This document shows positions 2 to 42,667 of a DNA stretch of 57,371 bases, in pieces. The position numbers and the translations under genes were made by a program. The stretch is from Defluviitaleaceae bacterium (lineage in GTDB: Bacteria > Bacillota > Clostridia > Lachnospirales > WQUN01), in the NCBI GenBank assembly GCA_009788085.1, contig WQSB01000002.1:1-57371 (forward strand), in the 5' to 3' direction. The first letter of the stretch is position 1; every line of letters begins with the position of its first letter. The notes beneath the pieces were generated by a model. The model did not search any database, had not been told where the DNA came from, and was given only the letters and a program-made list of their open reading frames with translations.

Positions 2-1033
2 GAGCTGCCCGCCGCCCTCGACCCGGACGAATTCGACGAGGTCAACAAGGGCCATCACAGAGGAGTGCTGTCGTCGCTGCGGGACGATTACGGTAATCTT
101 ACAACCAAGCGAATCTGCCCGTTTTGCCACAACGATATCCCCCAAAGCGCGGGATTTGCACCCAGCACGATTATCTCCGTGGTGGGCGCGACCCAATCGG
201 GCAAATCGGTGTATCTCACCAGTTTGATTCACACGTTAAAAACCGTTACGCCCCGCAACTTTCCTATTTTCTGTACGCCCATCAGCAACGAAATGGGGCG
301 CAAATTCAAATTCGAATACGAGGACCCGCTAATCGAAAACGGAATGCTGCTTAATCCCACCCAAAAGGAAAAGCAGCAGGAGCCGTTTATTTTTACGTTT
401 TCGTTTTCAGACGACACCAAACCGGAAATTAATATCGCTTTCTTTGACGTGGCCGGTGAGGGTATGGTTGACACATCTTACATGGATATCTACGCCGCTC
501 ATATCCGCAACTCGTCGGGGATTCTTTTCTTGGTTGACCCGTTGCAGTTCCGTTCTGTAGGGCGCAAAATTTTATTAAAAAATAATTTGGATTACGAACT
601 GCGCTTCTCAGACGAGCCCACGGATGTTCTCAGCGGCCTGGTGGAGGATTACATTTACAAGCAGGGGGGCGGCGTTTCGGATATCCCAACGGCAGTTGTT
701 TTGACCAAAACGGATTTGCTGGAGGCCCTGCAAGCCGACGGTGAATATATCCACAAGGACAGTCATTTTTTTGCAAACTACACTCACAAGGGATTTTTTA
801 ATATGCTCGAATTTTACAATATCGACGGCGAAACAGACGAGTTCATCGGCGATGTTGACCCAAATTTTCGAAACGCTCTGAAGCGGCGTTTTTCAGACTT
901 GGGATTTTTTGCCGTTTCCGCGCTGGGAACGCAGCCCGACGGGCAACGAGTGGCATCCTTTACGCCCATTCGTGTGGATGAGCCGTTTTTGTGGCTGCTT
1001 TTCCGGCTGGGTTACATCGAAGGCCGTGATTGA
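2..1033 (+). CDS. P-loop GTPase (TRAFAC-type, DO-GTPase-like), 5' end cut by window edge
   Basis: The frame is open from nt 2, with no stop before the listed start at 65. A CPFC zinc-ribbon-like motif is followed by Walker A GATQSGKS, Walker B/switch II DVAGEG and [NT]KxD as TKTD. Confidence 0.7.
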   Translation, partial: ELPAALDPDEFDEVNKGHHRGVLSSLRDDYGNLTTKRICPFCHNDIPQSAGFAPSTIISVVGATQSGKSVYLTSLIHTLKTVTPRNFPIFCTPISNEMGRKFKFEYEDPLIENGMLLNPTQKEKQQEPFIFTFSFSDDTKPEINIAFFDVAGEGMVDTSYMDIYAAHIRNSSGILFLVDPLQFRSVGRKILLKNNLDYELRFSDEPTDVLSGLVEDYIYKQGGGVSDIPTAVVLTKTDLLEALQADGEYIHKDSHFFANYTHKGFFNMLEFYNIDGETDEFIGDVDPNFRNALKRRFSDLGFFAVSALGTQPDGQRVASFTPIRVDEPFLWLLFRLGYIEGRD

Positions 1034-3071: not shown

Positions 3072-3293
3072 AAAAGCCGAAGGGTTTAGTTTGGAGCTCA
3101 TGAGGCGTGGGAATGCTCGCGCTAACGCTTGCCATGCGATGATTGAGACTGCTCGGGAAGTGCCTGTGCAGGTCTTGCTCCGCAAGCCCGGCGATGGCAC
3201 TAACCCTCGCCTGTCTCACTAATCGCACGACTTCGCTAGTCGCACTCGTCATTCCCACGCCTCATGAGCTCCAAACTAAGCCCTTCGGCTTTT
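3072..3293. repeat. Long palindromic element: 44-bp terminal inverted repeats around a 134-nt partly self-complementary core (MITE-like or structured RNA)
   Basis: Segment 3072-3115 is the reverse complement of 3250-3293 at 43/44 positions, and the one mismatch would be a G-U pair. Inner segments such as GCGATGATTGAGAC/GTCTCACTAATCGC and AGTGCC/GGCACT also pair. Confidence 0.8.
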
Positions 3294-3331
3294 TGCCGGA
3301 TAGGGTGAGGGTGGGCGGTAGGAGAGATAGT

Positions 3332-4852
3332 ATGTATATTGTAAAAGGGCATGAAATGCGCGAATTAGAAAACCGCGCCATGAAAAAATATGCTATTCCG
3401 TCTGTTTTGCTGATGGAAAATGCCGCGCTACAAGTGGTTAAGAACGGGCTTAGGCTGTTGAATGATAGGTCCGCCGGGAATGTAACAGTGGTTTGCGGCA
3501 GCGGCAACAACGGCGGAGACGGACTGGCATCGGCGCGGCTTTTTTATACAAAGGGGCACAATGTGCGGGTGGCGTACATTGGGGATATATCAAAAGCCCA
3601 AGGGGACGTTTTAATAAATTTGCGGATGGTTCAGCAAATGGGCATTCCCATCGAGGCCGACCCGGAAGCTTTGCCGGAGCTAGTAGCCGAATCCCATTTG
3701 GTGGTGGACGCCCTTCTGGGCATAGGCCTGTCGGGCCCGCTTCGCCCGAATTATGCCCGGGCCATAAACGCCATAAATACAGCGACGGTGCCGGTTTTAT
3801 CCGTTGACATCCCCTCTGGCGTGGACGCCGACACGGGAAAAGTCATGGATACCGCGGTTCACGCCCATACAACAGTAACCTTCGGACTGGCGAAAATCGG
3901 GCTGATGGCATATCCCGGCGCGGAATACGCCGGGCAGGTAATAATCGAAGATATTTCCCTTCCAGCGGAGGCGTTGAGCCCACCAGCGGGAGATCATTGG
4001 TTGCAAGCTTTGTGCCAGCCCGACATCGCGGCTTTGCTGCCGAAAAGGCCGGCCCGCTCCAACAAAGGCACCTTCGGTCGCATGTGCGTAATAGCAGGGT
4101 GCCGGGAAATGCCCGGGGCGGCAGTGCTGTGCTGCAAAGCCGCATACAAAGCGGGGGCGGGGTTGGTACACGCCTGCGTGGTTTGGGATGTTGCAAAAGT
4201 GATTCAGTCCTACGCTCACGAGGTCATTACAACAATTTTACCCGAAATTTTGCCCAATTCGGAACCCGACACCGAAGCCGTAGTCCCGCCGCAAGCCGAT
4301 GTAATCGCCATAGGGCCGGGCCTGGGGCGCAATCCCGAAAGCTTTGTTTTCGTGCGGAAAATAATGAACCAAGCCTCTGTACCACTGGTTATTGACGCGG
4401 ACGGCCTAATGGCCATTGCCGATGATATAACCGCCCTTAAATCCATAAAAGTGCCCTGCGTAATCACACCACACCCTGGGGAAATGGCCGCCCTAACCAA
4501 GCTTACGACCCCGGAGGTCACGGGCAATCTAATTGCCATCGCTCAAGAATTTGCCAAAACCCATGGCATAGTGACACTATTAAAAGACGCCCGCACGGTA
4601 ATTGCCTCACCGGACGGACGCACTTTTATAAATCTTACAGGAACACCGGCCCTTGCAAAGGCCGGAACCGGCGATGTCCTAACCGGCGTAATTGCCGCCT
4701 TAATCGCCCAGGGGCTGGCTGCTTTTGACGCGGCGGTGCTGGCTGCATATGTACACGGCTTTGCAGGCGAACTGGCCGCAAAGTCGCTTTCTGTTTATGG
4801 GGTAAATGCTAGCGATTTATTGGAATACCTGCCCTATGCTTTTATGCTGTAG
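3332..4852 (+). CDS. nnr: Bifunctional NAD(P)H-hydrate repair enzyme (epimerase + ADP-dependent dehydratase)
   Basis: The N-terminal YjeF_N-like segment reads MENAALQVV...VVCGSGNNGGDGL. The C-terminal carbohydrate-kinase domain reads GPGLG...TPHPGEMA...AKAGTGDVLTG. SD GGAGAG lies 5 nt upstream of ATG 3332. Confidence 0.9.
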   Translation: MYIVKGHEMRELENRAMKKYAIPSVLLMENAALQVVKNGLRLLNDRSAGNVTVVCGSGNNGGDGLASARLFYTKGHNVRVAYIGDISKAQGDVLINLRMVQQMGIPIEADPEALPELVAESHLVVDALLGIGLSGPLRPNYARAINAINTATVPVLSVDIPSGVDADTGKVMDTAVHAHTTVTFGLAKIGLMAYPGAEYAGQVIIEDISLPAEALSPPAGDHWLQALCQPDIAALLPKRPARSNKGTFGRMCVIAGCREMPGAAVLCCKAAYKAGAGLVHACVVWDVAKVIQSYAHEVITTILPEILPNSEPDTEAVVPPQADVIAIGPGLGRNPESFVFVRKIMNQASVPLVIDADGLMAIADDITALKSIKVPCVITPHPGEMAALTKLTTPEVTGNLIAIAQEFAKTHGIVTLLKDARTVIASPDGRTFINLTGTPALAKAGTGDVLTGVIAALIAQGLAAFDAAVLAAYVHGFAGELAAKSLSVYGVNASDLLEYLPYAFML

Positions 4853-5697
4853 GTATACGGAATACCCATCTGTTGCAGGCGTCCTATTCTTTCGTGTGTA
4901 TTTGGATGGGTTGAGTAAAGGGCTTTTAAAAAAGATTTCTGCGGGCTGTTTCTGCCAGTAGCATCTAACGCCTTGGCCAGCTGAACGCCATACCCTAGTT
5001 GAACGGCATAAGCATCAGCAGCATATTCATTTTCCCGCATCGACCATGATAGGAACAATATACAAAATTTTGTCCACAGCCAAATGATACCTCCAATCAC
5101 TATTCCTACAGCGGCTTTGACCCATGACCGGTTTCTGATTGCGGATATGACGGACCCTGTTGCTATAAGTACAGCAATCCCTCTCAAAATAAGGATAAAC
5201 ACAGTAATGAAAATATTGCCCCCTCCTATAAGCAGTTGTATTTCCGTATGACGATGTGCTAAATGTGCTATTTCATGTGATAGAAGCCCCAAGATTATTT
5301 CATCCGGCAGACGCATCAAACCTTCGGTAATGCAAATAGTCTTTCTGCCGATAGCATAGGCCTTAGCATCCGATGTGTATACTATTCTCAATTCAATCGT
5401 ATCAGCTAGGCCGGGCGTTTTCATTTTCGCCGTCCTATACACAGTTTCAAACAACGGTTCGATTCGTTTTTGCATATCAATCCTTTTTATCTTTTTTGCC
5501 CCAGCAAAAAAGCATAGCACCCATTCTCCAAACGGCGAAAAGGCCGCAAAAATTGACGCGATGTAAATTGCAAATACCACAGCCAAAACTTGAATGCCGC
5601 CACCTGAGAAAAATATTAGGACGGTCATTATATTAAGAAGGAAGAAAACGATTACACCTATGCCGGATTTTTTGAAGAGGTTTTTTGCTATATTCAT
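4834..5697 (-). CDS. M48-family (HtpX-like) integral-membrane zinc metalloprotease
   Basis: The protein has the HEIAHLAHRH (HExxH) motif, several TM segments and a C-terminal STHPNTHERI. Its ATG overlaps the upstream stop (ATGA). Confidence 0.8.
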   Translation of the reverse strand: MNIAKNLFKKSGIGVIVFFLLNIMTVLIFFSGGGIQVLAVVFAIYIASIFAAFSPFGEWVLCFFAGAKKIKRIDMQKRIEPLFETVYRTAKMKTPGLADTIELRIVYTSDAKAYAIGRKTICITEGLMRLPDEIILGLLSHEIAHLAHRHTEIQLLIGGGNIFITVFILILRGIAVLIATGSVISAIRNRSWVKAAVGIVIGGIIWLWTKFCILFLSWSMRENEYAADAYAVQLGYGVQLAKALDATGRNSPQKSFLKALYSTHPNTHERIGRLQQMGIPYTYSIKA

Positions 5698-36480: not shown

Positions 36481-36747
36481 TTATACCACGGTTTTGTTAA
36501 CCAGCTTGGTAAGTCTGGATTTTTTTCTTGCGGCGGTGTTCTTGTGGTACACACCCTTTGAGGCTGCTTTGTCTATAGCGGCATATGCCTGCACCAGCAT
36601 CGCCTGCGTGTTATCCGCGTCACCCGCGCCCACCGCTGTAGTCAACTTTTTAATAGCCGTCTTGGTTGTAGATTTAATATGTTTATTCCTCGCCTGGCGT
36701 TTCGCCGCGACACGGATACGCTTTTGCGCTGACTTGATGTTCGCCAA
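36481..36747 (-). CDS. rpsT: 30S ribosomal protein S20
   Basis: The N-terminus is MANIKSAQKRIRVAAKRQARNK. It is an 88-aa basic helical protein. Confidence 0.95.
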   Translation of the reverse strand: MANIKSAQKRIRVAAKRQARNKHIKSTTKTAIKKLTTAVGAGDADNTQAMLVQAYAAIDKAASKGVYHKNTAARKKSRLTKLVNKTVV

Positions 36748-36894
36748 ATCTTGTCACCTCCTTGCATGTAAAGCCATTGTAACCATTAACACCAGCAGAT
36801 GTCAAGTATTACAATTGGGGGTCACGGGCCGATATCCTTAGAATTTGTCAAAAGAAGGAAGATTGTATAAAATAAATCAAAGGGGGCGGGCACC

Positions 36895-38823
36895 ATGGCA
36901 ATGTTTGAATATGGCAATACGATAAATGCAATGAGGGTGCGCAGACAGTGGCAGCAATATAAGCTGGCGCAAACAAGACCCAAGGGTGCAAGCTCGATGG
37001 CGTTTGAAACCGTGTCCCGCATAGAAAACCACCGACGCCAGCCCGACACAAAAACCATGCGCAAGCTATTGTCAACCCTTGAGCTGCCGGAGCAATTCAT
37101 ATTTCCTTACTTGGAAAACACGTCATCGGTAGCTTTTACGCTTCGCGAGGCTCTGCTTGACGCGCTGGATACTGCGGAAAACGAGTTTCGGGAGTTAAAC
37201 ACCGCCGAAGAATTGTTTGCTCAAATATGCCCTAAGATAAGCATACACTCGGTCATAAACAGGCAATTTATCATAAGCTGCCAAGCCCGGTTGTATAGAA
37301 TGCAGAGCAAAGCCGCAAAAGAGCTTTATCCGCTTATAAATGAGGGGATGCGGCTTACATATCCCGAATTTAATATGCAATCCTTTAAATACAAGCTGCT
37401 TCTTTATGAAGAAGCCAGCCTCTTGCACACTTTAGCTTTGACTTTGGCTGGTGACGGCAAGCCGGACGATGCCATTGAGGTATTGCATAAACTTAAACAA
37501 GGGCTTGAAGACATGCCGGAGGACAATAGGAAAAAAGAACTCAAACTGCCCCAAGTGATTATGACCTTATGCAAGCTGCTGATAAATAAACAAGACTATG
37601 AAAACGCCTTAAACATGTGCGAGTTGGGGCGCGATACTTCCATCAAGCGCAATAAGGGGCGGCTTACGCCATGCTTTTTATATAACAAAGCCCTATGCCT
37701 ATTCCATATGAAAAGCCCGGATGAATGCCCAAGCCTATTAAGACAGGCATATTTTGGCTTTGCTCTAATGGGAATGAAAGACCACGCAAATGACGTGTTG
37801 GCAAATTCCCGCGCTATTTTTGGCATAGATATCAACACCTACGGAACAGAAAATTTGCAGCCCATCGTAGCTACCCCACCAAAAAAACACGGCAGCGCGG
37901 AGGCTTGCGAAAATATAGGCGACCTAATGCGCCAGTTTAGAGAAGAGGCCGGTGTAAGCGCGAAAACCATATATCAAGGCATATGCACCCCTTCGGCCTA
38001 TACCCGCATCGAATACGGAGCAATAGAGCGGCCTGATATATACGTAATAGAAGCCCTGATGCAAAGGCTGGGCCGCGACCCGGACAAATACTATAATATG
38101 TTTCTTATCAAAAATGAATTTGACGACAAACAAACCCGTGATGAAATCATGTCACTGTTGGTTGCACGAAAATATGACGAGGCGGAAAAATTGCTGGAAA
38201 GTATAAAGGATACCAAGGCTTTCAAAAAAAATGTCGGCAAGCAGTTTGTATTAAGCGTAGAAGCATCCATTTACCGCAGCCGCCAGGGATACATCCCTGA
38301 ATACGAAGAAATGCTTCTTAAAGCACTAAAGACAACCTTGCCAAATTTTGACGAACGCTGGATTGCCGGATACCACCTGACACACCGGGAAATCACGATA
38401 ATCATGCAACTGGCAAATTATCATGCCGAAAAAAAGGCAAAAGAATTAGACCGCAGCATAAAGATATATGAACGACTTAGAACCAGCATGAACAAAATCT
38501 ATGTAGACGGGAATGAAATGATACGAACATACGGAACCTTGCTATACAATTACTCCAAGTATCTTGGGCTTGCTGGTCAGTATCAAAAAGCCCTCGAAAT
38601 TGTGAACGAGGGCGAATTGCTGTGCTTTTCATATGGGCGAGTTAGACAGCTTCCGGGGTTTGCAATCAATAGAGCATATGACCTCTTACATCTTGGTAAA
38701 AAAGAAGAAAGCATTCCCTATTTTGCTATGGCGTACTATGGCTCTGCCCTAATTGGAAGAACCGGAAACCAAAATGTAACTGGCAAATTTGCAGAGGAGC
38801 GACTTAATATTATTTTCGATTAA
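36895..38823 (+). CDS. Tandem double HTH (XRE-type) + helical-repeat regulator, RNPP/Rgg-like pseudo-dimer
   Basis: There are two consecutive modules of about 320 aa. Each opens with an XRE-like HTH (VSRIENHRRQPDTKTMRKLL; YTRIEYGAIERPDIYVIEALMQRL) and ends similarly (LRQAYFGFALMGMKDHAN versus YFAMAYYGSALIGRTGNQN). Confidence 0.65.
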   Translation: MAMFEYGNTINAMRVRRQWQQYKLAQTRPKGASSMAFETVSRIENHRRQPDTKTMRKLLSTLELPEQFIFPYLENTSSVAFTLREALLDALDTAENEFRELNTAEELFAQICPKISIHSVINRQFIISCQARLYRMQSKAAKELYPLINEGMRLTYPEFNMQSFKYKLLLYEEASLLHTLALTLAGDGKPDDAIEVLHKLKQGLEDMPEDNRKKELKLPQVIMTLCKLLINKQDYENALNMCELGRDTSIKRNKGRLTPCFLYNKALCLFHMKSPDECPSLLRQAYFGFALMGMKDHANDVLANSRAIFGIDINTYGTENLQPIVATPPKKHGSAEACENIGDLMRQFREEAGVSAKTIYQGICTPSAYTRIEYGAIERPDIYVIEALMQRLGRDPDKYYNMFLIKNEFDDKQTRDEIMSLLVARKYDEAEKLLESIKDTKAFKKNVGKQFVLSVEASIYRSRQGYIPEYEEMLLKALKTTLPNFDERWIAGYHLTHREITIIMQLANYHAEKKAKELDRSIKIYERLRTSMNKIYVDGNEMIRTYGTLLYNYSKYLGLAGQYQKALEIVNEGELLCFSYGRVRQLPGFAINRAYDLLHLGKKEESIPYFAMAYYGSALIGRTGNQNVTGKFAEERLNIIFD

Positions 38824-38978
38824 TCGGTTTCGTTCTCTGTATCATGTATACTGCTGGGTGAAGGCACATCATAGCAACCAGCAACACCCTCGCCACCACT
38901 CACCGGAATCGCGGACAACACAACCACCATACAACAGACCAACGCGCACAACTTCCTTGCCAAACCAGACTTACGCAT
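38820..38978 (-). CDS. Small secreted pro-peptide (52 aa), absent from the ORF track
   Basis: The sequence is MRKSGLARKLCALVCCMVVVLSAIPVSGGEGVAGCYDVPSPSSIHDTENETD. SD AAGGAG lies 8 nt upstream. It has a Sec-type signal-like N-terminus, and its stop overlaps the regulator stop by 3 nt. Confidence 0.55.
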   Translation of the reverse strand: MRKSGLARKLCALVCCMVVVLSAIPVSGGEGVAGCYDVPSPSSIHDTENETD

Positions 38979-39034
38979 ACCATCAACTCCTTAAAATTTT
39001 TGTATCTTCATTATAATACGACATGATTCATCAA

Positions 39035-39078
39035 AACTTGACACCTTATGCAAAAATCTTTGAGTAAGGTGTCAAGTT
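39035..39078. promoter_or_regulatory. Perfect 14-bp inverted repeat (candidate regulator box) centred between two divergent promoters
   Basis: The repeat is AACTTGACACCTTA-N16-TAAGGTGTCAAGTT. TATAAT boxes at 39010-39015 (minus strand) and 39098-39103 (plus strand) are each centred 44 bp from the dyad centre. Confidence 0.65.
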
Positions 39079-39144
39079 GCGATGCTGAACTATGGATTAT
39101 AATAGCTACAGCAACAAAATTTAAAATGAAAGGAGGAGATACTT

Positions 39145-39309
39145 ATGACACCAATCATTACTACAGAGTGGGCAGCTGATGATGTTATAAATCCAGCATC
39201 AATAACAACCCATTGTAATCTTGACCCGCAGTGCTACACTCGGCCTACACCACCGCAACCGCCACAAATTTCGCCAATAGGATGCTTTGTACCTCAATCC
39301 ATAAGCTAA
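39145..39309 (+). CDS. Small Cys/Pro-rich peptide (54 aa), absent from the ORF track; possible RiPP precursor
   Basis: The sequence is MTPIITTEWAADDVINPASITTHCNLDPQCYTRPTPPQPPQISPIGCFVPQSIS. SD AGGAGG lies 8 nt upstream of the ATG. Confidence 0.5.
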   Translation: MTPIITTEWAADDVINPASITTHCNLDPQCYTRPTPPQPPQISPIGCFVPQSIS

Positions 39310-39393
39310 CCATTAGCTAGGGAAGGTTCAACAAGCCACGCTTTGTTGTTGGTTTGTTGAACCTTTTGGCGCATGAGAGGATGATGTAATTTT

Positions 39394-40977
39394 ATGAAGA
39401 AGAGAATACTGCTTCTTGGGCTAGTGATTTTTATTTTAGCTTCTTGCGGCTCAAGAACCAACCGTGACGAGGCTTCAAGTACAGGGGAAGCATATGAAAT
39501 TGAAACCGCACCATCCTCAGAAATTGAATATACAGTTGCACATCTGAATGAAGAAACGGAAATTGAATATTCCGCGGAAGTTATAACGCCCACCTTACAA
39601 GAAGTGCTGCAACGCGCAAATGAGCGCAGAGAGGGCATAATCAAGAGGGATTATAGCGATATCCTTGTAATGATAGAGGGGCATGTGCCCAACCCTGAAA
39701 GCATTTTAAATTTCCAAACCTCCCCGCAGGCGCGAAATATATCCCAAGAGGATGCTATCGCGGATGCAATGGATTTCTTTCAGCTAATGCGGGATATGTA
39801 TGCCGGGTACTTTTACTTTGGCGGCGATGAGGTGTTCTTGCCCGTGCGCGACGCTGTTTTGGAGGAGCTTGCAACCCTTGGGGCAGAGTTCCCGGCATTT
39901 AGGCTTGGGCAGATTTTGCGGGTGCATCTTTCCGGGGTCATTTGGGACAGTAATTTTGGCATAGACGGGCACAATTTAGGCCGCCCGTTGGCTTACTTTA
40001 TCGGCAGCACCCCTTTTGACAGGACAGCGGACGGATTCCGCAACAGGGAAACTGGCCTGTATGCCGTGGAAGTGGATGGCATACCGATAAATGAAGTGAT
40101 GGAACTGTCCCTAAGTCAATCCGGGGAATTTTACTATAACATTGTCATGCTACTGGAAAGTTCCTATTCGCTCATAATGCCCACTGTGACATACAGCAAT
40201 GGCACAAGCGAAGAACTTCGCCTTACCAGAGTACAAACCCAGAGAAGAGGCGTTTTTCCGCCCAGTCTTGAAGTTATCAACGGCGTACCCGTAGTCACCA
40301 TACGTCGAATGACTCACGAAGGGCTCTTGGAAGCTCCTTTCATGGACGGAATTCAGCTGGAATTGACAAATACTTTCATGTCTTTTGCGGAAGAACTAAA
40401 AGACGAGCCCGTAGTAATTGTAGATTTGCGGGGCAATACCGGCGGCGCGGGCCTCCTTTCCGCCAGATGGCTGCATACGTTTACGGGCGAATTTGTTCCA
40501 AGCAATTTTGTTGAATTTGGCGTAAGCGAAGTCCGCCCTGAATTGCGCCCCATCACCCCGGAATGCACTTGGTCGTATGTTTCCGCCGAAAATATAGAAC
40601 GGTATTGGCCGTCAATATTGGTTGGCGAAGGATACTTTCTGACCGGGCACTTGCCTGACAGGATTATTGAACGGGATAATCTGCTTATTGTATTAACAGA
40701 CAGGTATGTATGGTCGGCGGCGGAAATGTTTGTTGATTTATCCACAAATATTTCCAACACATTGATTATAGGAACCAACACCGGCGGTGTTGTGCATTTT
40801 AAAGGCTATCAATCAGGAACTATGCCTCGTTCCGGCGTTCGGTTTAATTTTGCTTCCGCCGCAATTGTTTGGCCGGAAGGGCATTGCCCCGAAAGAGTGG
40901 GCATCACGCCGGATATATGGGTGCGCGGCGACGCACTGGCCGCCACACTGGCCATGCTTGGCGAATTGGAGGGATAA
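39394..40977 (+). CDS. Lipoprotein, S41-family (C-terminal processing type) serine peptidase
   Basis: It has lipobox LASCG and the motifs DLRGNTGGAG, VWSAAEMF and IIGTNTGG. Confidence 0.65.
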   Translation: MKKRILLLGLVIFILASCGSRTNRDEASSTGEAYEIETAPSSEIEYTVAHLNEETEIEYSAEVITPTLQEVLQRANERREGIIKRDYSDILVMIEGHVPNPESILNFQTSPQARNISQEDAIADAMDFFQLMRDMYAGYFYFGGDEVFLPVRDAVLEELATLGAEFPAFRLGQILRVHLSGVIWDSNFGIDGHNLGRPLAYFIGSTPFDRTADGFRNRETGLYAVEVDGIPINEVMELSLSQSGEFYYNIVMLLESSYSLIMPTVTYSNGTSEELRLTRVQTQRRGVFPPSLEVINGVPVVTIRRMTHEGLLEAPFMDGIQLELTNTFMSFAEELKDEPVVIVDLRGNTGGAGLLSARWLHTFTGEFVPSNFVEFGVSEVRPELRPITPECTWSYVSAENIERYWPSILVGEGYFLTGHLPDRIIERDNLLIVLTDRYVWSAAEMFVDLSTNISNTLIIGTNTGGVVHFKGYQSGTMPRSGVRFNFASAAIVWPEGHCPERVGITPDIWVRGDALAATLAMLGELEG

Positions 40978-40979
40978 TA

Positions 40980-41257
40980 ATGAAGCTTATTAAGCACATG
41001 ATTTTTGTAGATGTCGATGAGGACAAGAAGCTGAGCTGTACAGCAACCTACAATCCCGTGGATATTTAGTTCAAAACGATGGCGAAGAAGCTGCTATGAA
41101 AGATAAAGTATTGAATGATTTGCGTGAAAGGCACTCCCACATCAAGGCACAGTGTAGGTCAATGACATTTATACTGACATATGACTGCAACTTTAGATGC
41201 GCGTACGTTTATACAAGAAAACCCCCTTCAGCGTATGTTGGAATATTTTTCTTGTAG
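40980..41257 (+). pseudogene. Decayed 5' remnant of a radical SAM/SPASM peptide maturase
   Basis: Two frames read MKLIKHMIFVDVDEDKKL... and ...ELYSNLQSRGYLVQNDGEE...SMTFILTYDCNFRCAYVY. This matches the usual N-terminus and CxxxCxxC box, but the third Cys is Val and a stop follows about 15 codons later. The rest of the gene is missing. Confidence 0.65.
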
Positions 41258-41318
41258 AATTATGTATTATATTGCTTAATGTGTCAATACTTTTTGTTGG
41301 CAGATTTTAAATAAAATG

Positions 41319-41356
41319 AAAAAGCCCATCCAACAATATGAACTGATGGGCTTTTT
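41319..41356. terminator. Bidirectional intrinsic terminator
   Basis: The sequence is AAAAAGCCCATC-N14-GATGGGCTTTTT. Confidence 0.65.
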
Positions 41357-41397
41357 CATTTAGAAAATATACAAAATGCTGAGATGGAAAATCATAG

Positions 41398-41426
41398 TTG
41401 ATTTCTTTATGCCTATGGAATATAAT
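41398..41426 (+). promoter_or_regulatory. Sigma-A-type promoter upstream of the FliD-like gene
   Basis: The sequence is TTGATT, a 17-nt spacer, then TATAAT. Confidence 0.55.
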
Positions 41427-41479
41427 ACATACATAAAAGTATAGTTCTTAGAAAGCTACTAGAAAGCGGGGTAATTCTC

Positions 41480-42667
41480 ATGACTATACGTAGTATGGCT
41501 TTACAAACTATGCGCATGGGCAACTTCCAAGGTCTCCCCGGGGCGGCGTCGCCCGTTCCCGGTTTGCCGGGCAATAATGCGGGAAGTCAAAGCATCGCCC
41601 GAACCAACGAAAATATCCGCAATGCCGGAAGCGCGATGTCAGCGGCCTTGGAGATTTTAACTGGCCGGGATTCAGCCCCCTTACAGGGGCGTACTTCCGA
41701 TGCGGACGTAGCCACGGTCAGTGTGGACAGCAGGCGTTTGATAACGTCCATGCCGCCCCGGGACACAAGAATTGACGTGGAGCAAATCGCCCAAGCCCAA
41801 GTCAATACCGGAGACGCTCTGACAGCGAACTTAAGAACCATTGACTCCGGCGCGTTTTCCTTTGAAATTGAGGCTAACGGCAGAACCCACACCTTCAATA
41901 TTAATGTGACGGACAATCACGATAACGTATCCATCCAGCGGTTAATGGCCAATGCTATCAATGACAGAAATATCGGCGTAAACGCCACCGTTCAAACCGG
42001 AACGGATGATGGCAGCGCAACCTCCACTCTGACCTTGACCTCCGCCCAAACCGGCGAGGGCGCGGCGTTTAGAGTAACGGATGCAAGTGGCGGCCTTGCG
42101 GCGGCCATGGGCATAGACACTGTTGACCAGCAGGCCAGAAACGCGATATTTTCCATAAACGGCGGCGAGGCAAGAACGTCTCAGTCCAATGATGTAAACA
42201 TTGCGGCGGGCGTAACAGCCACGCTGACGGGCGAAGGCCGGACAGATATCACCTTTGGCCGCGAGCCTGGGCAGCTGATTGGCGCGGTTACAGACCTTGT
42301 AAACGCCATCAACTCCGCCATGAGAAGCACCAATGCCAATGATGGCCGCGGTTCGTCAAGATTCCTTCAAGACCTTCACGGCATGAACGTAACCTTCGCC
42401 TCCGCGCTTTCGCGAGTGGGCATTGATGTCCAGAACAACGGTCAGTTGTCCATACACGCGGGCCGCTTGGAAGCCGCCGCAGCAGACGGCAGCTTATCAA
42501 GCTTCTTTGAAGGCCGGGGCTTTGGTGCGCGGGTAGAGCGTATCGCAAACAACGCCATCAATACCAATCACTACGCAAACGCTGCCGCTCCCGTCAATTT
42601 CAATAACAATATGTTTAACTTCGAAAACACCAATAATCAGTGGAACATGTTTAATCTGTTTGGATAA
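41480..42667 (+). CDS. FliD-like (flagellar filament cap-like) protein lacking the usual N-terminal region, with N/Q-rich tail
   Basis: FliD-type middle and C-terminal patterns are present: VDVEQIAQAQVNTG, NAIFSINGGEARTSQSNDVNIAAGVTATLTG, LSRVGIDVQNNGQLSIHAGRLEAAAADGSLSSFF. This was recognised by eye only. Confidence 0.45.
   Translation: MTIRSMALQTMRMGNFQGLPGAASPVPGLPGNNAGSQSIARTNENIRNAGSAMSAALEILTGRDSAPLQGRTSDADVATVSVDSRRLITSMPPRDTRIDVEQIAQAQVNTGDALTANLRTIDSGAFSFEIEANGRTHTFNINVTDNHDNVSIQRLMANAINDRNIGVNATVQTGTDDGSATSTLTLTSAQTGEGAAFRVTDASGGLAAAMGIDTVDQQARNAIFSINGGEARTSQSNDVNIAAGVTATLTGEGRTDITFGREPGQLIGAVTDLVNAINSAMRSTNANDGRGSSRFLQDLHGMNVTFASALSRVGIDVQNNGQLSIHAGRLEAAAADGSLSSFFEGRGFGARVERIANNAINTNHYANAAAPVNFNNNMFNFENTNNQWNMFNLFG

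Follow-up and report, generated by a model that had tools for sequence, protein, structure and literature searches.

The window analysed here, a stretch of 57,371 nucleotides (nt) from contig WQSB01000002.1 of an uncultured termite-gut Firmicute, contains a regulator gene followed by two small open reading frames (ORFs) that diverge from a perfect inverted repeat. This raises the question as to whether the regulator, the small ORFs and the repeat belong to one signalling circuit and, if so, what that circuit controls. Comparison of the sequences makes it likely that the locus is a PlcR/PapR-like (RRNPP-type) peptide quorum-sensing cassette controlling an operon for a peptide made by ribosomes and modified after translation (RiPP). 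The signalling half of the cassette looks intact, and the cargo half probably no longer makes a modified peptide since its maturase gene is a frameshifted and truncated remnant. A preliminary description of this DNA had proposed the signalling peptide, its cargo and the shared regulatory site; the tandem doubling of the receptor, the longer composite operator palindrome and the decay of the cargo operon go beyond it.

The receptor is a tandem duplication of a PlcR-like module

Pfam places RNPP_C on the 642 amino acid (aa) regulator in two stretches (E 8.7e-14) together with HTH_3 and HTH_31, the helix-turn-helix (HTH) being clear at residues 341-397 and weaker at the N-terminus. Among the tetratricopeptide repeat (TPR) models TPR_2 lies above the gathering score and TPR_12 is weak and below the cut-off. 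The N-terminal and C-terminal halves of the protein align with each other at an E value of 4e-14 (22% identity over 203 residues). A search of the PDB with a 43-member family profile returned PlcR as the best match (2qfc/3u3w, E 1.8e-16), with positions 334-601 aligned to PlcR 2-256, while profile positions 7-69 matched XRE-type HTH proteins. The AlphaFold2 model is all-helical, with a predicted local distance difference test score (pLDDT) of 91 and a predicted template modelling score (pTM) of 0.91, and shows two five-helix HTH units with a TPR-like solenoid after each; Foldseek with this model recovers PlcR at a target-normalised TM-score of 0.64. Because the two halves align, RNPP_C occurs twice, the profile matches PlcR and the model contains two HTH plus TPR units, the receptor is an internal tandem duplication of a PlcR-like module (HTH followed by TPR/RNPP_C, twice), each module being approximately 310-330 aa. 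This duplication accounts for a length outside the 250-500 aa set for receptors in the published RRNPP signature (PMC10075063).

In a library of 1.84 billion representatives clustered at 50% identity we found 191 proteins at E <= 1e-30, mostly of 620-670 aa and aligning from end to end, and single-module relatives of about 300 aa were a minority of the family matches and aligned to the C-module only. In the literature that could be searched we came across no account of a tandem or fused RRNPP receptor and none of RRNPP systems from bacteria of the termite gut, which is an absence of evidence in that literature only. Using a 10-sequence alignment of the regulator family we retrieved 92 loci with relatives of this ~640-aa regulator at 29-63% identity (12 of the loci from species-representative genomes and 80 from metagenome contigs), and the counts of pro-peptides and palindromes given below are for the 67 of these that are distinct.

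A convergent gene for a probable pro-peptide

Both small ORFs, their Shine-Dalgarno sites and the overlap of the stop codons were found where the preliminary description had put them (Table 1), as were the perfect 14-nt repeat, the TATAAT boxes 44 bp from its centre, the poor -35 regions and the mirrored flanks. The term "unannotated" used there for the two ORFs is true of the ORF track from which it was written; public gene calls on identical copies of the contig include both.

The minus-strand ORF, which converges on the regulator gene, encodes MRKSGLARKLCALVCCMVVVLSAIPVSGGEGVAGCYDVPSPSSIHDTENETD. By simple heuristics its N-terminus resembles a secretion signal, with an n-region MRKSGLARK that places four K/R within the first 12 residues, then a 15-residue hydrophobic stretch and then PVSG, in which V-S-G is a cleavage-like site. 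From these simple features alone a signal peptide is predicted at approximately residues 1-28 (cleavage between …AIPVSG and GEG…). The candidate pheromone core is …VPSPSSIHD…, and GEGVAGCYDVPSPSSIHDTENETD is the stretch for tiling with synthetic peptides. At 52 aa the product falls within the 10-100 aa of the small pro-peptides in the RRNPP signature, and its gene is the direct neighbour of the receptor gene, as that signature demands (PMC10075063). The peptide stop (38822-38820) overlaps that of the regulator (38821-38823) and the shared TTAA lies within the palindrome GATTAATC (38818-38825), so that both convergent ORFs end in Asp-stop. A terminator is absent between the two genes, and pro-peptide transcription should therefore run antisense into the regulator gene.

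In the closest related locus (L013, regulator 63% identical) the convergent ORF encodes MSKVALAKKLCALVCCLVIVFVAVPVSGATDDYNSAISPNNIYNDNPNDD, which is 44% identical to the 52-aa peptide (E 5e-14). A strict filter asking for a Shine-Dalgarno site, an N-terminus with two or more K/R and 10 or more hydrophobic residues in a row was passed by 28 of the 67 distinct loci, and once obvious near-misses were added 35 pro-peptides were curated, with a median length of 51 aa; a convergent ORF of 39-57 aa with a signal-peptide-like N-terminus is in this way present in at least 35 loci. In 22 of the 28 strict cases the placing of the peptide stop with respect to that of the regulator (-3) is identical to the window. 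The C-terminal parts of these peptides are diverse but have a common core, P-x-x-[ILVF] occurring within the last 18 residues of 29 of the 35 peptides against a mean of 13.8 in shuffled sequences (a count reached in 0 of 2000 shuffles) and a tighter C-terminal motif in 20 of 35 against 2.7. The similarity of the peptide tails follows the identity of the regulators (Mantel rho 0.35, 0 of 2000 permutations), which indicates stable co-inheritance of peptide tail and regulator. Pfam and NCBIfam gave no match for the 52-aa peptide, the 54-aa peptide or the related precursors. Since receptor-adjacent convergent ORFs recur across the related loci, the 52-aa ORF very probably encodes a pheromone pro-peptide.

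The pro-peptide of one related locus (L008) is 72 aa long (minus strand, approximately 119-337 nt after the regulator stop) and carries the C-terminal motif twice (…SPTNDLPVQHPR and …VPMNDLPVQHPR), an internal duplication of the presumed mature peptide. Phr/PapR-type pro-peptides can repeat their motif in this way (PMC9765709).

A composite palindrome between two divergent promoters

The arms of the perfect 14-nt repeat, AACTTGACACCTTA (39035-39048) and TAAGGTGTCAAGTT (39065-39078), are separated by a 16-nt spacer, and a repeat finder extends the dyad to 26-nt arms of 85% complementarity (39029-39054 and 39059-39084). Within it lie inner half-sites resembling those of the PlcR box, TATGCA (39047-39052) and a degenerate TGAGTA (39061-39066), and the flanks are mirrored about the dyad with GATG-N11-ATTATAAT on each side. 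Of 200 first-order Markov simulations of the window one contained a perfect inverted repeat with 14-nt arms and at most 30 nt between them. We found no second copy of the half-site or operator elsewhere in the 57 kb, and an Rfam scan of 38000-42000 returned sub-threshold noise only.

Both promoters have a TATAAT box and no usable -35 element (0-2 of 6 matches at 16-17 bp spacing), neither has an extended -10 element and a consensus scan for complete sigma-70 promoters called neither of them. A TTGACA inside each outer arm was considered as a -35 element and rejected, being 54 bp from the nearest -10 box on the same strand. With the centre of the -10 box taken as approximately -9.5, the dyad centre falls at about -53.5 and the outer arm at about -36 to -38 of each promoter, and the outer arms thus occupy the position of the missing -35 elements. 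An activator that touches RNA polymerase at the two promoters alike would fit this predicted geometry.

We then scanned the related loci for the best symmetry centre 100-420 bp downstream of the regulator stop. With a threshold of at least 19 of 26 matched positions a palindrome was present in 29 of the 67 loci and in none of 200 shuffled regions. These palindromes are 44-52 bp long with outer arms that vary by clade (for example TGTCAATGACA, CAAGGCGAGT, ATCGAGTTGTGAA and GACACCTTA) and inner arms that have the motif [TC]G[CTA]AA[CA] in common, placed a few bases off the centre. The PlcR box is TATGNAN4TNCATA, with half-sites TATGNA and TNCATA (PMC3519770), and the inner part of the L013 palindrome, TATGCA-N8-TGCATA, consists of the same half-sites at a wider spacing (8 rather than 4 bp), embedded in the larger palindrome. 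Hexamers that agree with TATAAT in 5 or more of 6 positions gather at 43.5-46.5 bp from the centre, in about 20 of the 29 loci on the side of the pro-peptide and in about 15 on the opposite side, and when the intergenic regions of the window and L013 are aligned the conserved blocks are the dyad core and both -10 boxes. As the palindrome and the -10 geometry recur in related loci, the dyad is probably the operator through which the receptor drives both promoters, and its four-part symmetry fits a presumed dimer of a chain with two HTH units.

The probable cargo operon and its decay

The plus-strand ORF encodes MTPIITTEWAADDVINPASITTHCNLDPQCYTRPTPPQPPQISPIGCFVPQSIS, with three Cys, a PTPPQPPQ tract and a Pro-rich core. 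Two related loci, L002 and L081, have the same gene order as the window, the dyad being followed at once by a short ORF and then by a stable hairpin analogous to that at 39322-39369, an S41 peptidase and a radical SAM (rSAM)/SPASM maturase. Their short ORFs encode 68 and 65 aa with Gly/Cys-rich cores and begin MKPIIETGW and MALKPVLELGW, respectively, and the N-terminus of the 54-aa product, MTPIITTEW, is identical to the L002 precursor in 6 of 9 residues. From its position and this leader motif we have a slight preference for the 54-aa ORF as a RiPP precursor, maybe one orphaned through loss of its maturase.

The S41-family lipoprotein encoded downstream is 33% identical to its homolog in L013 (E 2e-61). 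It keeps the Ser of the SAAE motif and is without the Lys at the TxGK position that is typical of Ctp/Tsp-type S41A peptidases, a feature common to the S41 relatives in L013 and L081. Candidate substrates are the RiPP leader and the pheromone pro-peptide; a literature search on S41 peptidases with rSAM RiPP clusters found nothing relevant. Directly 3' of the peptidase gene is the remnant of a PapB/Clo7bot-like rSAM/SPASM maturase, which keeps residues 1-18 and 53-115 of approximately 442, in two frames, and breaks inside the CxxxCxxC motif (CNFRCAYV), with the third Cys lost and unrelated sequence and a terminator beyond. Split over two frames and truncated within this motif, the maturase is a pseudogene. 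The window therefore has no intact rSAM/SPASM maturase next to the candidate precursor; intact copies are found in L002, L081 and L013. The terminator hairpin is strong and symmetric and sits between the remnant and a weakly FliD-like gene (41480-42667).

Among the related loci the genes downstream of the dyad encode rSAM or rSAM/SPASM enzymes in 11 loci that form a cluster and in two more, one with a PqqD-like domain, ABC exporters in 8 and S41 peptidases in 5, with solute-binding proteins and small XRE regulators among the other downstream genes. The maturases resemble those of PapB-type ranthipeptides, Clo7bot and "Cys-rich" peptides at scores below the equivalog cut-offs. In L013 two paralogous Cys-rich small ORFs (3258-3401 and 5058-5213), which start with MEYLFE and contain the motif TPFEVP, lie on either side of the S41 gene, downstream of the rSAM/SPASM maturase, and are likely to be the precursors in this closest relative of the window cassette.

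Genomic setting and related loci

The window is chromosomal, carrying genes for ATP synthase, rpsT, HflX and a methyl-accepting chemotaxis protein. The GC content of the 36500-41500 cassette is approximately 42-46% against about 50% in the flanks, and the cassette is a mosaic, the regulator, pro-peptide, dyad and S41 peptidase being nearest to L013 and the maturase remnant and gene order nearest to L002. Three other public assemblies contain the contig as well, with 100% identity over the region, which left no strain-level variation to draw on.

Sample codes Co191P1 and Emb289P1 denote termite-gut metagenomes (PMC7886697). All traceable related loci come from such metagenomes, and all 12 genome loci are metagenome-assembled genomes (MAGs) of Oscillospiraceae, Defluviitaleaceae or Lachnospiraceae. 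The codes Th196, Lab288 and Pal332 we take to be of the same termite-gut series. Several genomes or MAGs have multiple regulator paralogues. One Lachnospiraceae MAG contig (WRLH01000001.1) contains two tandem-type regulator genes approximately 10 kb apart (L004 and L005), each with its own convergent pro-peptide candidate; the palindrome reaches 19 of 26 positions in L004 only, that of L005 having 17 of 26.

Table 1 Features of the cassette in the window and the basis on which each was called
Feature	Position	Strand	Basis and details
Receptor/regulator gene, 642 aa	36895..38823	+	Pfam, half-vs-half alignment, PDB profile, AlphaFold2
Receptor domains (residues)	HTH1 ~5-69, TPR1 ~75-320, HTH2 ~341-399, TPR2 ~405-642		
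52-aa ORF (very probable pro-peptide), ATG start	38978..38820	-	Sequence read; convergent with regulator, 4-nt overlap (TTAA)
Shine-Dalgarno AAGGAG of pro-peptide gene	38992-38987	-	Sequence read; 8 nt before ATG
-10 box TATAAT, predicted pro-peptide promoter	39015-39010	-	Centred 44 bp from dyad centre 39056.5
Composite palindrome, probable operator	39029..39084		Repeat finder, family comparison
-10 box TATAAT, predicted cargo promoter	39098-39103	+	Centred 44 bp from dyad centre 39056.5
Shine-Dalgarno AGGAGG of 54-aa ORF	39131-39136	+	Sequence read; 8-nt spacer to ATG
54-aa ORF, candidate RiPP precursor, possibly orphaned	39145..39309	+	Position and N-terminal motif
Stable hairpin then UUUU, attenuator-/terminator-like, between 54-aa ORF and peptidase gene	39322..39369	+	-32 kcal/mol, z-score -4.5
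Peptidase_S41-family lipoprotein, 527 aa, lipobox LASC	39394..40977	+	Pfam PF03572, E 8e-11
Radical SAM/SPASM RiPP maturase pseudogene remnant	40980..41257	+	tblastn with L002 maturase, 57% identity, E 4e-22
Terminator hairpin closing cargo transcription unit, AAATGAAAAAGCCCATC…GATGGGCTTTTTCATTT	41314..41361		Sequence read

Comparison with known systems

Among the known systems closest to the one described here is PlcR-PapR of the Bacillus cereus group, with which it has in common the HTH plus TPR build of each receptor module, PlcR being the best solved match, a pro-peptide of about 50 aa with a Sec-type signal, here a putative one, and an active part expected at the C-terminus, and a palindrome upstream of promoters that are activator-dependent or, in the window, probably so, for which autoinduction of the pro-peptide would be expected here also. 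Several family peptides carry [DN][IL]LP[FY]x[FY], and tails such as NILPFRF, DLLPYRY and FILPFRL come near to PapR7 ADLPFEF, and the inner half-sites TATGCA and TGCATA fit those of the PlcR box (PMC3519770). The two differ in that the receptor here has two modules fused into 642 aa rather than a length of about 285 aa, the pro-peptide gene runs towards the receptor gene and overlaps its stop whereas the PapR gene lies co-directionally downstream, the operator of 44-52 bp has extra variable outer arms around inner half-sites that are 8-9 instead of 4 bp apart, the target is a RiPP operon and not a virulence regulon, and the window peptide has a 7-residue acidic tail beyond the motif.

In gene layout the locus matches the Group III Rgg/SHP (short hydrophobic peptide) systems, for example those of streptide-type radical-SAM RiPPs (RaS-RiPPs) in Streptococcus thermophilus, in which shp is convergent with rgg, overlaps its 3' end and controls rSAM RiPP operons, the promoter being divergent with an operon that starts with a short precursor (PMC13361665). 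SHPs, in contrast, are short and hydrophobic, carry no Sec signal and leave the cell through PptAB; Rgg has one module and is not the nearest relative of the window receptor in structure, the hosts are streptococci rather than termite-gut Clostridia, and the maturases here are PapB/Clo7bot-like SPASM enzymes for Cys-rich precursors. RRNPP_detector has listed 196 biosynthetic gene clusters (BGCs) beside candidate RRNPP systems, which likewise have a small pro-peptide, Sec-dependent there and putatively so here, adjoining a TPR receptor next to a BGC; the tool keeps receptors of 250-500 aa and so, owing to its doubled length, the family of about 640 aa lies outside the default search space (PMC10075063). 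Set among these systems the locus is one of RRNPP quorum sensing over a RiPP operon, as are Rgg/SHP with RaS-RiPPs, and what is new is the doubled receptor and the composite operator.

Proposed circuit

Modelled on the behaviour of PlcR-PapR and Rgg-SHP, the 52-aa product would be exported via Sec and its pro-region of approximately 24 residues trimmed outside the cell to a short peptide with the P-x-x-[ILVF] core, approximately SPSSIHD, which would then be re-imported to bind the TPR pocket or pockets of the tandem receptor. The liganded receptor would bind the composite palindrome and, because the outer half-sites sit at the missing -35 positions, could activate both flanking promoters at once. 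The minus promoter would give more pro-peptide, an autoinduction with positive feedback, and the plus promoter a RiPP-type operon comprising the 54-aa candidate precursor, the attenuating hairpin, the S41 lipoprotein peptidase and, formerly, the rSAM/SPASM maturase. In this scheme we also infer activation rather than repression, the assignment of HTH units to sub-sites and the precursor role of the 54-aa ORF.

In a more elaborate form of this circuit the receptor is a single-chain "pseudo-dimer" with two HTH units and two peptide pockets. A homodimer with four HTH units would read the palindrome in the order outer-inner-inner-outer, and the pockets would bind different ligands, such as the pheromone and the mature RiPP, making the receptor a two-input gate on both divergent promoters, and antisense feedback on the mRNA of the receptor would come in addition from the conserved overlap of the convergent stops. 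We regard this as speculative and rather improbable.

Several observations weigh against the circuit as we propose it. About half of the related regulator loci lack a clear pro-peptide or palindrome at the expected place, and in the window itself the right inner half-site is degenerate, with TGAGTA instead of TGCATA. Segment-wise Mantel tests in which HTH1, TPR1, HTH2 and TPR2 were compared with the peptide tail and with the operator arms, outer and inner, yielded uniformly weak correlations and no assignment of domains to sub-sites or pockets. On the cargo side, the maturase pseudogene means that the "cargo" function may belong to the past and not to the present, the similarity of the 54-aa ORF to the L002 precursor is limited to those 6 of 9 residues, a search among 5.8 billion clustered proteins returned the 54-aa peptide itself alone and in L013 no small ORF comes straight after the dyad. 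A phmmer search against all small ORFs of the 92 loci also found nothing for the 54-aa peptide.

Alternative readings

The principal rival to activation is that the receptor, like PrgX or Rgg3, is a repressor which blocks both promoters from the palindrome until the peptide relieves it. At both promoters the -35 position is covered by an outer arm, which is compatible with occlusion, and repressing and activating RRNPP members bind the same kind of site, Rgg3 and Rgg2 being an example (PMC13361665). We nevertheless consider a repressor circuit unlikely because both promoters are without a -35 or extended -10 element, as is typical of activator-dependent promoters, and the palindrome is clear of the -10 box and transcription start; PlcR, the closest solved relative, is furthermore an activator. 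That the dyad symmetry arose by chance or is structural, as in a hairpin or terminator, has nothing in its favour beyond the fact that inverted repeats can be terminators and is effectively refuted by the comparative data, given the rarity of such a repeat in the simulated windows (1 of 200), its position between two divergent 5' ends without a T-run, the same geometry kept in 29 loci and the lack of an Rfam match above threshold.

How far the two small ORFs belong to the circuit is a separate matter. The 54-aa ORF may be non-functional, having arisen by chance in the 5' leader of the S41 transcript or being a precursor that has decayed and lost its role, and the sole real outputs would then be the pro-peptide and peptidase. 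The lack of a homolog among the 5.8 billion proteins, the missing counterpart in L013, the lost maturase and a Pro-rich core with three Cys, where those of L002 and L081 are rich in Gly and Cys, all speak for this, which leaves it a real if lesser possibility in view of the consensus AGGAGG at an ideal 8-nt spacing to an ATG, the precursor-hairpin-S41-rSAM gene order as in L002 and L081 and the N-terminal MxPII-T-W motif in common with L002. RiPP cores are, besides, normally hypervariable. The 52-aa product might similarly be a small secreted or membrane-anchored protein, such as an immunity or bacteriocin-like peptide, and not be sensed by the regulator, since its function is read from context and genes for its processing or import were not identified in the window. 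This we hold to be very improbable. Against it stand the strict coupling of the ORF to the gene of the receptor, the stop overlap being the same in 22 loci or more, the short length of the peptides, the duplicated motif of L008 as in Phr/PapR-type pro-peptides (PMC9765709) and a variable C-terminus whose motif, in NILPFRF and DLLPYRY, resembles PapR7 ADLPFEF (PMC3519770).

Of what the preliminary description had proposed, a Phr/PapR-like role for the 52-aa product is thus supported by the L013 homolog, the equivalents in at least 35 of 67 loci and the C-terminal motif, and a PlcR/Rgg-type regulator site on a two-way promoter by the recurrence of the palindrome with -10 boxes at about 44 bp, as judged by comparison between loci. 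Its idea of the 54-aa product as a co-regulated RiPP precursor held up in part, with the position, the N-terminal match and the hairpin in its favour and the absent homolog and maturase pseudogene against it. In the related loci the 52-aa peptide and the dyad are conserved and the 54-aa peptide has no sequence homolog.

Significance

The main value of the locus lies in the doubled receptor family and its readable triplets rather than in the two small ORFs. A sizeable family, of which we found no prior description, is added to the quorum-sensing receptors, and with it come dozens of predicted triplets of receptor, peptide and operator with differing specificities, as the pro-peptides, operators and target operons of the family can be read straight from sequence. 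Such triplets would be useful for studying the co-diversification of pheromone and DNA specificity and as orthogonal parts for synthetic biology. Beyond the Rgg/SHP paradigm of streptococci, the family also ties the production of radical-SAM RiPPs to peptide signalling in Clostridia of the termite gut, and in the genome of the window the signalling module appears to have outlived its cargo.

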